This document shows positions 1,433-1,846 of a DNA stretch of 64,000 bases, piece by piece. The stretch's first letter is position 1; every line of letters begins with the position of its first letter. This DNA is from Chryseobacterium sp. GTDB taxonomy: Bacteria > Bacteroidota > Bacteroidia > Flavobacteriales > Weeksellaceae. The stretch is from NCBI RefSeq assembly GCF_029240215.1, contig NZ_JARBTK010000005.1:19813-83812 (forward strand), given 5' to 3'. A model generated the notes under the pieces. The model had not been told where the DNA came from, ran no database searches, and saw nothing but the letters and a program-made list of their open reading frames with translations. The position numbers were made by a program, and so were the translations under genes.

Positions 1433-1561
1433 ATGACAATACAAAGAGCACATATCAGTTTAAATCTTTGCGATCGCCCTGTACTAAAGGGATCGTTTGG
1501 ATATGAATGGATGATATTGGATGAGGCGAAATGTGCTTGCTTTGAAAATTATTTACTGTAA
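1433..1561 (+). CDS. Leader peptide 1, 42 aa (MTIQRAHISLNLCDRPVLKGSFGYEWMILDEAKCACFENYLL)
   Basis: Hand translation; A-rich 5' context; lies between a promoter element and a terminator. Confidence 0.6.
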   Translation: MTIQRAHISLNLCDRPVLKGSFGYEWMILDEAKCACFENYLL

Positions 1562-1591
1562 ACTCGTAAAAATTTAATCAAAATACTGCAG

Positions 1592-1619
1592 AAACGCCTC
1601 GATGATCGGGGCGTTTTTT
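1592..1619 (+). terminator. Intrinsic terminator / attenuator 1
   Basis: AAACGCCTCGA-TGA-TCGGGGCGTTT followed by T run. Confidence 0.8.
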
Positions 1620-1846
1620 GTGTTTTTAAGGCAGAAATTATTTAGAATGAAAAAAAATAACCATAAAAGTGAAAATTATTTAATCAACAATGAACAATTA
1701 ATAAGAAAATAAAGCGTGATCAATAACCCGGTGAGAGACAGTCATTTAGGTAATTAAGATATCTGTAAAATATTACGGACAAAAATTCTCTACGCTGAAA
1801 ATAGAGTATAATCAATTGATTTTCAAATAGTTGATTGAAAAATAAA

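Follow-up and report, generated by a model that had tools for sequence, protein, structure and literature searches.

Attenuation of transcription by leader peptides is known as a device that senses one or a few amino acids ahead of biosynthetic genes. In the textbook leaders trpL, hisL, and leuL, a short promoter-proximal ORF precedes an intrinsic terminator, and the transcript can fold into three overlapping helices, 1:2, 2:3, and 3:4; the sensing codons lie upstream of region 2, and a ribosome that terminates at the stop codon blocks helix 2:3. Some leaders are multivalent, such as ilvL, which senses Ile, Leu, and Val, and thrL, which senses Thr and Ile, and pheM, located before pheST, is a case of leader-peptide attenuation that controls a gene of the translation apparatus. 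The tandem T-boxes of Bacillus thrZ place terminator switches in series before one target, and the ermCL leader peptide senses translation inhibitors via ribosome stalling.

The long, supernumerary tRNA array of Anabaena sp. PCC 7120 is silent during normal growth, and impairment of translation induces it (Santamaria-Gomez et al. 2021, PMC8421152). Bacteroidetes are among the phyla in which long tRNA arrays occur (PMC8421152); that article names no attenuator, and the words "attenuat-", "leader", and "terminator" are absent from it. Our full-text searches of the literature found no leader-peptide control of bacterial tRNA arrays.

Here, we analyze a locus of Chryseobacterium sp. in which two leaders, separated by a structured spacer, precede a tRNA array (Table 1). 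The window to which all coordinates refer is the whole stretch of 64,000 nucleotides that was analyzed (contig NZ_JARBTK010000005.1 of assembly GCF_029240215.1, positions 19,813 to 83,812 of the forward strand). We propose, with a probability of roughly 0.6, that leader 1 acts as a trpL-type transcription attenuator operated by the ribosome, samples all twenty amino acids, and is the first of a tandem pair, a reading that draws on sequence comparison and on models of folding and ribosome geometry. Leader 1 resembles trpL, hisL, and leuL in the promoter-proximal short ORF, the overlapping helices, the intrinsic terminator, the placement of the putative sensing codons upstream of region 2, and the predicted blocking of 2:3 by a ribosome terminating at the stop codon. 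Unlike these leaders, it contains no run of a single amino acid, the 20 types occurring once or a few times each in 26 codons; its ORF is long (42 codons), with region 1 already at codons 4-7; its cargo is RNA, namely, the spacer, the second leader, and the tRNA genes, rather than biosynthetic enzymes; and its host, in contrast to the enterobacterial case, is a member of Bacteroidota without Shine-Dalgarno-led initiation. Whereas the two or three amino acids sensed by ilvL and thrL correspond to their pathways, leader 1 covers the whole alphabet and precedes tRNA genes. T-boxes, unlike leader 1, bind tRNA directly and involve no ORF, and antibiotic-sensing leaders, such as ermCL, depend on the drug and the nascent peptide, whereas leader 1 would depend on amino-acid coverage. 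Compared with the Anabaena array, the presumed sensor here is a pair of leader ORFs. The attenuation device thus appears to be generalized into a sensor of trouble in decoding any codon, doubled before a spare tRNA set. If confirmed, this arrangement would offer a concrete mechanism for switching on silent supernumerary tRNA arrays under translational stress, as well as a compact natural reporter of ribosome stalling in Bacteroidota.

Table 1. Features of leader 1, the spacer, leader 2, and the tRNA array in window coordinates; percentages of paired cells are inflated because the structures were derived from the window sequence itself
Feature	Position	Strand	Evidence or remarks
P1, -7 promoter box TATCTTTG (extended form TATCTTTGCACC)	1412-1419	+	invariant, 44 sequences from 7 genera
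Leader ORF1, 42 codons and TAA (1559-1561)	1433-1561	+	invariant ATG, open frame
Region 1 (CAAAGAGCAC, codons 4-7), predicted anti-antiterminator 5' strand	1442-1451	+	pairs with 1533-1544
Internal hairpin H1, CC/GG core at codons 16 and 20	1470-1496	+	82.6% paired, 3 compensatory pairs
Region 2, GAGGCG (1523-1528) and GUGCUUGCUUUG (1533-1544, codons 34-38)	1523-1544	+	partner is region 1 or region 3
Predicted antiterminator hairpin 2:3, ORF1 stop codon in apical part	1523-1600	+	folding and alignment pairing
Intrinsic terminator T1 (3:4), stem 1590-1618 and U-rich tail	1590-1628	+	terminator scan
Helix 1:2	1442-1451 / 1533-1544	+	97.5% of cells paired, 2 compensatory pairs
Helix 2:3, whole	1523-1544 / 1578-1600	+	91.5% of cells paired, 7 compensatory pairs
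Helix 2:3, outer part (GAGGCG:CGCCUC)	1523-1528 / 1595-1600	+	97% of cells paired, 1 compensatory pair
Helix 3:4 (T1)	1590-1618	+	97.7% of cells paired, 4 compensatory pairs
Motif TTATTTAGAATGAAAAAAAAT, start of 21-codon ORF (1647-1712)	1638-1658	+	identical or nearly so in 7 genera
Spacer hairpin, 7-nt loop GAGACAG (1735-1741)	1728-1750	+	96.9% paired, 3 compensatory pairs
Second spacer hairpin (UCUGU / ACGGA)	1762-1779	+	98.1% paired
P2, promoter of leader 2: -33 TTTG (1847-1850), -7 TTACTTTG (1871-1878)	1847-1878	+	conserved in all genera
Leader 2: ORF 1946-2071, terminator T2 2095-2121	1946-2125	+	ORF list, terminator scan
tRNA array, 15 tRNA genes	2128-4316	+	ARAGORN

The main elements of leader 1 had been noticed in a preliminary description made from the letters of this stretch. 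The 42-codon ORF lies exactly where it had been placed, encodes all 20 amino acids, and uses 32 different codons; the promoter element TATCTTTG precedes it, and the strong terminator reported after it was recovered by the terminator scan as a stem of 13 pairs, 6 of them G-C, followed by a U tract. The complementarity between GAGGCG in the ORF and CGCCTC in the terminator arm was borne out, and the 21-codon A/T-rich ORF is present before the next promoter. Leader 2, which the same description held to be alike in length and composition, is approximately so in length, with 41 codons, but its ORF encodes 19 amino-acid types, Thr being the one missing. Leader 2 shares with leader 1 the apparent promoter class and a mini-ORF with a built-in copy of the terminator 3' arm, and carries its own built-in antiterminator. 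A common origin of the two leaders is conceivable; their direct alignment shows a weak likeness (z ~3) that comes mostly from the promoter and the terminator. Leader 2 adjoins the tRNAs, whereas leader 1 precedes another leader.

The genes directly after the array (4463-6661) encode a protein of the RNaseH_like type (PF04308) and a pair of ATP-grasp proteins, of which one belongs to the R2K clade. On the opposite side, P1 is separated from the upstream TPR-protein gene by a stretch with a REP-like palindromic repeat (1290-1385); other genomes of the genus carry related copies of this repeat at many sites, though none at this position.

Both P1 and P2 contain the extended box TAnnTTTGCA(A)CC...AAA. 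The same box precedes rpsL, rpmB, rpmH, rpmE, rpsF, tig, and atpD in the host genome, and this class of boxes also precedes ribosomal-protein genes in other genera. Judging from these occurrences, it looks like a distinct class of housekeeping promoters that is common to both leaders. P1 lacks the conserved -33 TTTG, and its predicted 5' UTR is only about 8-12 nt long. In the host genome, 33 sites match TAnnTTTGCA(N)CC...AAA, and many of these precede translation genes, including tyrS and nusB. A palindrome of the TGATnATCA form (1817-1825), some 25 nt before the -33 TTTG of P2, is conserved in all genera and is a candidate operator of a dimeric regulator for P2.

The block 1400-2130 was detected in all of the 36 other genomes searched within the genus (79-92% identity), in 5 of 8 sister-genus genomes (84-86% identity), and, at 67-72% nucleotide identity, in five additional genera of the same family. 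Conservation starts about 15 nt upstream of the TATCTTTG box, and the genomes diverge farther upstream. Leader 2 and the tRNA array follow leader 1 wherever the contig extends that far; one contig stops just past P2. A covariance model of leader 1 yielded strong matches (E <= 1e-18) only in these seven genera, and the eight best of the weak matches in other genera turned out, on inspection, to be ordinary gene 3' ends with terminators. Among 136 genomes from 17 other families of the order, nothing convincing was found, with one weak match outside the family, and the phage and plasmid collections contained no match that would point to an origin of either kind. The sole match elsewhere in the host genome (contig 12) is not a paralogue of leader 1 but an A/T-rich sequence after an ordinary terminator.

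For the 44 aligned sequences, RNAalifold predicted the long-range helix between 1442-1451 and 1533-1544, the internal hairpin, and T1. Folding of the nascent transcript 1424-1604, an end point at which the 5' arm of the terminator is out and the 3' arm is still unmade, gives a different picture: GAGGCG and region 2 pair with the spacer after the stop codon and with CGCCUC, the probability of GAGGCG:CGCCUC is ~1, and helix 1:2 falls to 0. The full transcript folds into 1:2 together with T1. Compensatory changes are found in all three helices (Table 1), and when the partners are slid by 1-3 columns, pairing drops to 31-54% of the cells (39-54% for the antiterminator). The outer 2:3 helix consists of 5-6 base pairs, the sixth pair being lost in 7 of the 44 sequences. 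In one species, GAAGCG in ORF1 occurs together with CGCTTC in the terminator arm, which is a double change, and in one distant genus, as read from the sequence, the ORF segment UCGAGA pairs with a different arm, UCUCGA. Together, the alignment and the folding models show three conserved and mutually exclusive helices, that is, the 1:2 / 2:3 / 3:4 form of an attenuator. Four of the elements that characterize the trpL class are recognized here: a translatable promoter-proximal ORF, a terminator before the cargo, a putative 2:3 antiterminator, and a putative 1:2 anti-antiterminator.

A search of Rfam with the region 1200-4600 returned nothing above threshold except tRNAs, and no T-box match was found in the same region at E up to 1. 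The weak match to the Phe_leader family (RF01859; positions 1520-1621) was rejected because it scored 27.1 bits, with a gathering threshold of 55 and E = 0.14; the resemblance is limited to the terminator and the leader tail.

The conservation of ORF1, on which the preliminary description had in part staked its reading, is evident. The ATG and the stop position are invariant, with 42 codons in 44 of the 44 aligned sequences, which represent seven genera; one further genome, outside the alignment, has an ORF1 of 41 codons. These 44 sequences contain no in-frame stops, compared with 3.4-3.5 per sequence in the other two frames; among the 163 variant base states in ORF1, about 10.6 stops would be expected if the changes were neutral, and none is seen. 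The peptide itself appears weakly constrained. The pN/pS of ORF1 is 0.69, compared with 1.0 and 0.76 for the other frames, and the differences are spread almost evenly over codon positions 1, 2, and 3 (0.17, 0.21, and 0.22, respectively). The invariant residues lie on RNA helices: Q4-R5 correspond to region 1, P16 and G20 to the C-C/G-G core of H1, E31-A32 to GAGGCG, and K33-A35 to region 2. Indeed, Pro16 and Gly20 are invariant because the C-G pairs of the H1 core are invariant. The peptide has no match in Pfam (E up to 0.01) or NCBIfam (E up to 1), and nothing was found that would place it in the known families of small proteins or RiPP precursors. As judged from the alignment, being translated is selected in ORF1 and the peptide product is not, which is the signature of a leader ORF, and we infer that ORF1 is actually translated.

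All 20 amino-acid types occur within codons 1-26 of ORF1, the twentieth being Trp at codon 26. The presence of 20 types in the 42 residues is weak evidence alone because it has a chance of ~0.3% in random 42-mers, and 7 of the 2737 ORFs of 38-46 aa in the host genome hold all 20 types. Reaching 20 types within codons 1-26 has a probability of 6e-6 with proteome frequencies and of 1e-5 in random DNA of this composition. All six frames of the host genome together hold 16,933 ORFs with 26 or more codons, and ORF1 alone shows 20 types in this segment; no ORF shows 19, and 24 show 18. The 32 distinct codons of ORF1 compare with 25.6 +/- 2.5 in 42-codon gene windows (P = 0.0055). A bias toward rare codons was considered and dismissed, ORF1 being only ~1.2 sd below genes.

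Across lineages, the coverage is maintained while residues change position. Twenty types are present in 28 of the 44 peptides and 19 types in the remaining 16. Four peptides from distant genera differ from that of the window at 24-30 of the 42 residues, yet each contains 20 types (per-lineage null P = 0.013-0.07, given the unchanged residues). Val is found at more than 10 different positions, Thr and Asp at no fewer than 7 positions each, and Trp at position 13, 26, 29, or 36 depending on the lineage. When residues were permuted within the alignment columns, the mean number of types was 19.15 +/- 0.09 vs 19.61 observed, and 0 of 5000 shuffles reached the observed value, a significance that is overstated because the related sequences are not independent. 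The stricter property, all 20 types within 26 codons, holds for 17 of the 41 distinct peptides, including two from distant genera; in the other 24, 1-4 types are missing or lie outside the first 26 codons. In leader 2, the first 26 codons contain 15 types, compared with 20 in leader 1. By these comparisons, the amino-acid coverage of ORF1 is under selection. The two leaders jointly contain all 20 types in 41 of 42 genomes; complementary coverage was rejected as an explanation, given that few types are missing and a rough chance estimate gives the same result.

The distribution of these codons can be compared with the space that a ribosome would occupy, taken, as an assumption, to be the standard bacterial footprint, which reaches from -15 to +11 nt relative to the first nucleotide of the codon in the A site. 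In this model, stalls with codons 2-27 in the A site are the only ones that would permit 2:3, with GAGGCG free; stalls at codons 28-37 would cover GAGGCG, and from codon 38 to the stop codon, the ribosome would be inside the 2:3 loop. Region 1 would be covered directly only by stalls at about codons 2-11 and not by those at codons 12-27. ORF1 is divided in such a way that the first 26 codons carry the alphabet and the last 15 carry the switch.

Under the attenuator mechanism that we propose, P1 would start an RNA whose first ~200 nt comprise the 42-codon ORF and the three mutually exclusive helices. If the ribosome is absent, 1:2 would form first and T1 would terminate transcription; smooth translation to the stop codon would bring the ribosome into the apical part of 2:3, and T1 would again terminate. 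Once any charged tRNA is short or damaged, the ribosome would stall with its A site at one of the codons 2-27, leaving region 2 free to capture region 3, so that the polymerase would read through T1. When the stall lies past about codon 11, we assume that 1:2 is kept from re-forming by ribosomes queued behind or by the sheer size of the ribosome in the 80-nt loop. The read-through RNA would carry the structured spacer (1620-1870) and extend into leader 2, T2, and, further, the spare tRNA array. Where transcription starts, in which order the helices fold over time, how a queue of ribosomes would shield region 1, and whether read-through extends to the tRNAs are inferred parts of this scheme. 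Several observations weigh against it, namely, the short 5' UTR and the missing -33 TTTG of P1, the shortness of the outer 2:3 helix, the recourse to queuing or steric effects for codons 12-27, the 24 peptides that fall short of 20 types in 26 codons, and a joint coverage of the two leaders no better than chance. With the two leaders in series, moreover, a shortage of Thr, which is absent from leader 2 here, would open T1 but not T2, which speaks against a simple benefit of the tandem.

The stretch between T1 and P2, ~250 nt, is conserved and gene-less in all seven genera. The 21-codon ORF in this stretch retains 20-21 codons within the genus, but its frame is not conserved: three distant genera have only MKKN-stop, and in two species the start codon is ACG. 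It is therefore not the target as a protein. The two spacer hairpins jointly are 97.5% paired, with compensatory changes at 6 of the 14 pairs; in the second hairpin, U.G, U-A, and C-G interchange at one pair, and C-G and U-A at another. The G.U pairs of these hairpins fit only a + strand RNA. These compensatory changes and strand-specific G.U pairs indicate that the spacer is transcribed as + strand RNA. By reading, no TAnnTTTG consensus was found between T1 and the spacer hairpins, the closest sequence being TTATTTAG at 1638-1645. Because no consensus promoter is seen in between, read-through of T1 appears to be the simplest source of the spacer RNA, and a non-canonical promoter may be present in this interval.

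The same data bear on other readings of leader 1. P1, ORF1, and T1 might constitute a free-standing small gene that gives rise to an ~195-nt RNA and encodes a 42-aa Cys-containing peptide or functions as a dual-function small RNA; T1 would then be constitutive, and the position beside leader 2 would reflect a shared regulon rather than a connection in series. In favor of such a gene, the unit has its own promoter box and a strong terminator; furthermore, Cys is enriched in the peptide (3/42 vs 0.7% in the proteome), and terminated attenuator RNAs, for example rnTrpL (PMC7968998), can act in trans. Residues Q4, R5, H7, I8, P16, and G20 are invariant across the genera, but the invariant residues coincide with RNA helices, and the pN/pS of 0.69 comes without a third-position excess, in a peptide that matches no protein family. 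Moreover, a conserved helix that competes with the terminator would be purposeless in a constitutive unit, and the spacer after T1 is a conserved, structured + strand RNA without a canonical promoter of its own. A free-standing gene thus appears unlikely, although its chances are not negligible. The prospects are poorer for an untranslated structured RNA, be it a riboswitch-like element, a protein- or tRNA-binding leader, or a small RNA, in which ORF1 would be incidental; this we consider very unlikely. The segment 1442-1544 does fold into a rod-like structure with compensatory changes and a fold z-score of -2.6, and the 5' UTR of ORF1 would be very short. However, an incidental ORF is at odds with the complete lack of in-frame stops among the 44 sequences, where about 10.6 are expected, with the invariant ATG and stop position, and with an extreme amino-acid coverage kept by residues that change position; no Rfam family matches the element either, the best candidate being Phe_leader, at 27 bits vs 55.

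The preliminary description had left a choice between tandem double attenuation of the tRNA array and deletion of the regulated gene or genes, possibly of the rtcB/prfH type, which would make leader 1 an orphan relic. The window indeed harbors no protein gene between T1 and the next promoter. However, the same gene-less spacer is present in seven genera, with 67-92% identity, whereas a relic would decay and differ between lineages, and the comparison with relatives for missing genes revealed none that carries a gene between T1 and P2. The deletion is contradicted by these observations, and a relic is hardly credible. Because nothing was deleted and a conserved spacer, leader 2, and the array follow, we read leader 1 as the upstream member of tandem attenuators. 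The tandem option fits everything seen, with read-through from about 1425 to the tRNAs as its conjectural part.

The spacer has a further property that touches on the array. In one genus, the 1728-1750 stem is wholly different, and the GAGACAG loop is the same. GAGACAG is exactly complementary to CUGUCUC (U37), the anticodon loop of the array tRNA-Asp (2639-2710), and a lone anticodon-arm-like hairpin beside this tRNA (~2733-2750) also contains CUGUCUC, unlike the housekeeping tRNA-Asp, in which the anticodon loop is CUGUCAC. The GAGACAG loop and the CUGUCUC loop are both invariant across the genera; in the one genome with a decayed spacer loop, a search of 1.9 kb turned up no Asp-type hairpin of this kind. 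It is conceivable, although rather improbable, that leader 1 gates, besides transcription into leader 2, a small sensor RNA in the spacer in which GAGACAG kisses CUGUCUC of the array tRNA-Asp and of the lone hairpin but not the housekeeping tRNA-Asp. If true, this would be a feedback or specifier-like device that reads the product of the array, outside the T-box family; the GAGACAG loop resembles a T-box specifier only by its complementarity to an anticodon loop.

None of the array tRNAs encodes CCA. The anticodon loops of most array tRNAs differ from those of their housekeeping counterparts at position 32, 37, or 38, for example, CUGUGGA vs UUGUGGU in tRNA-His and CUUUGAC vs UUUUGGU in tRNA-Gln.
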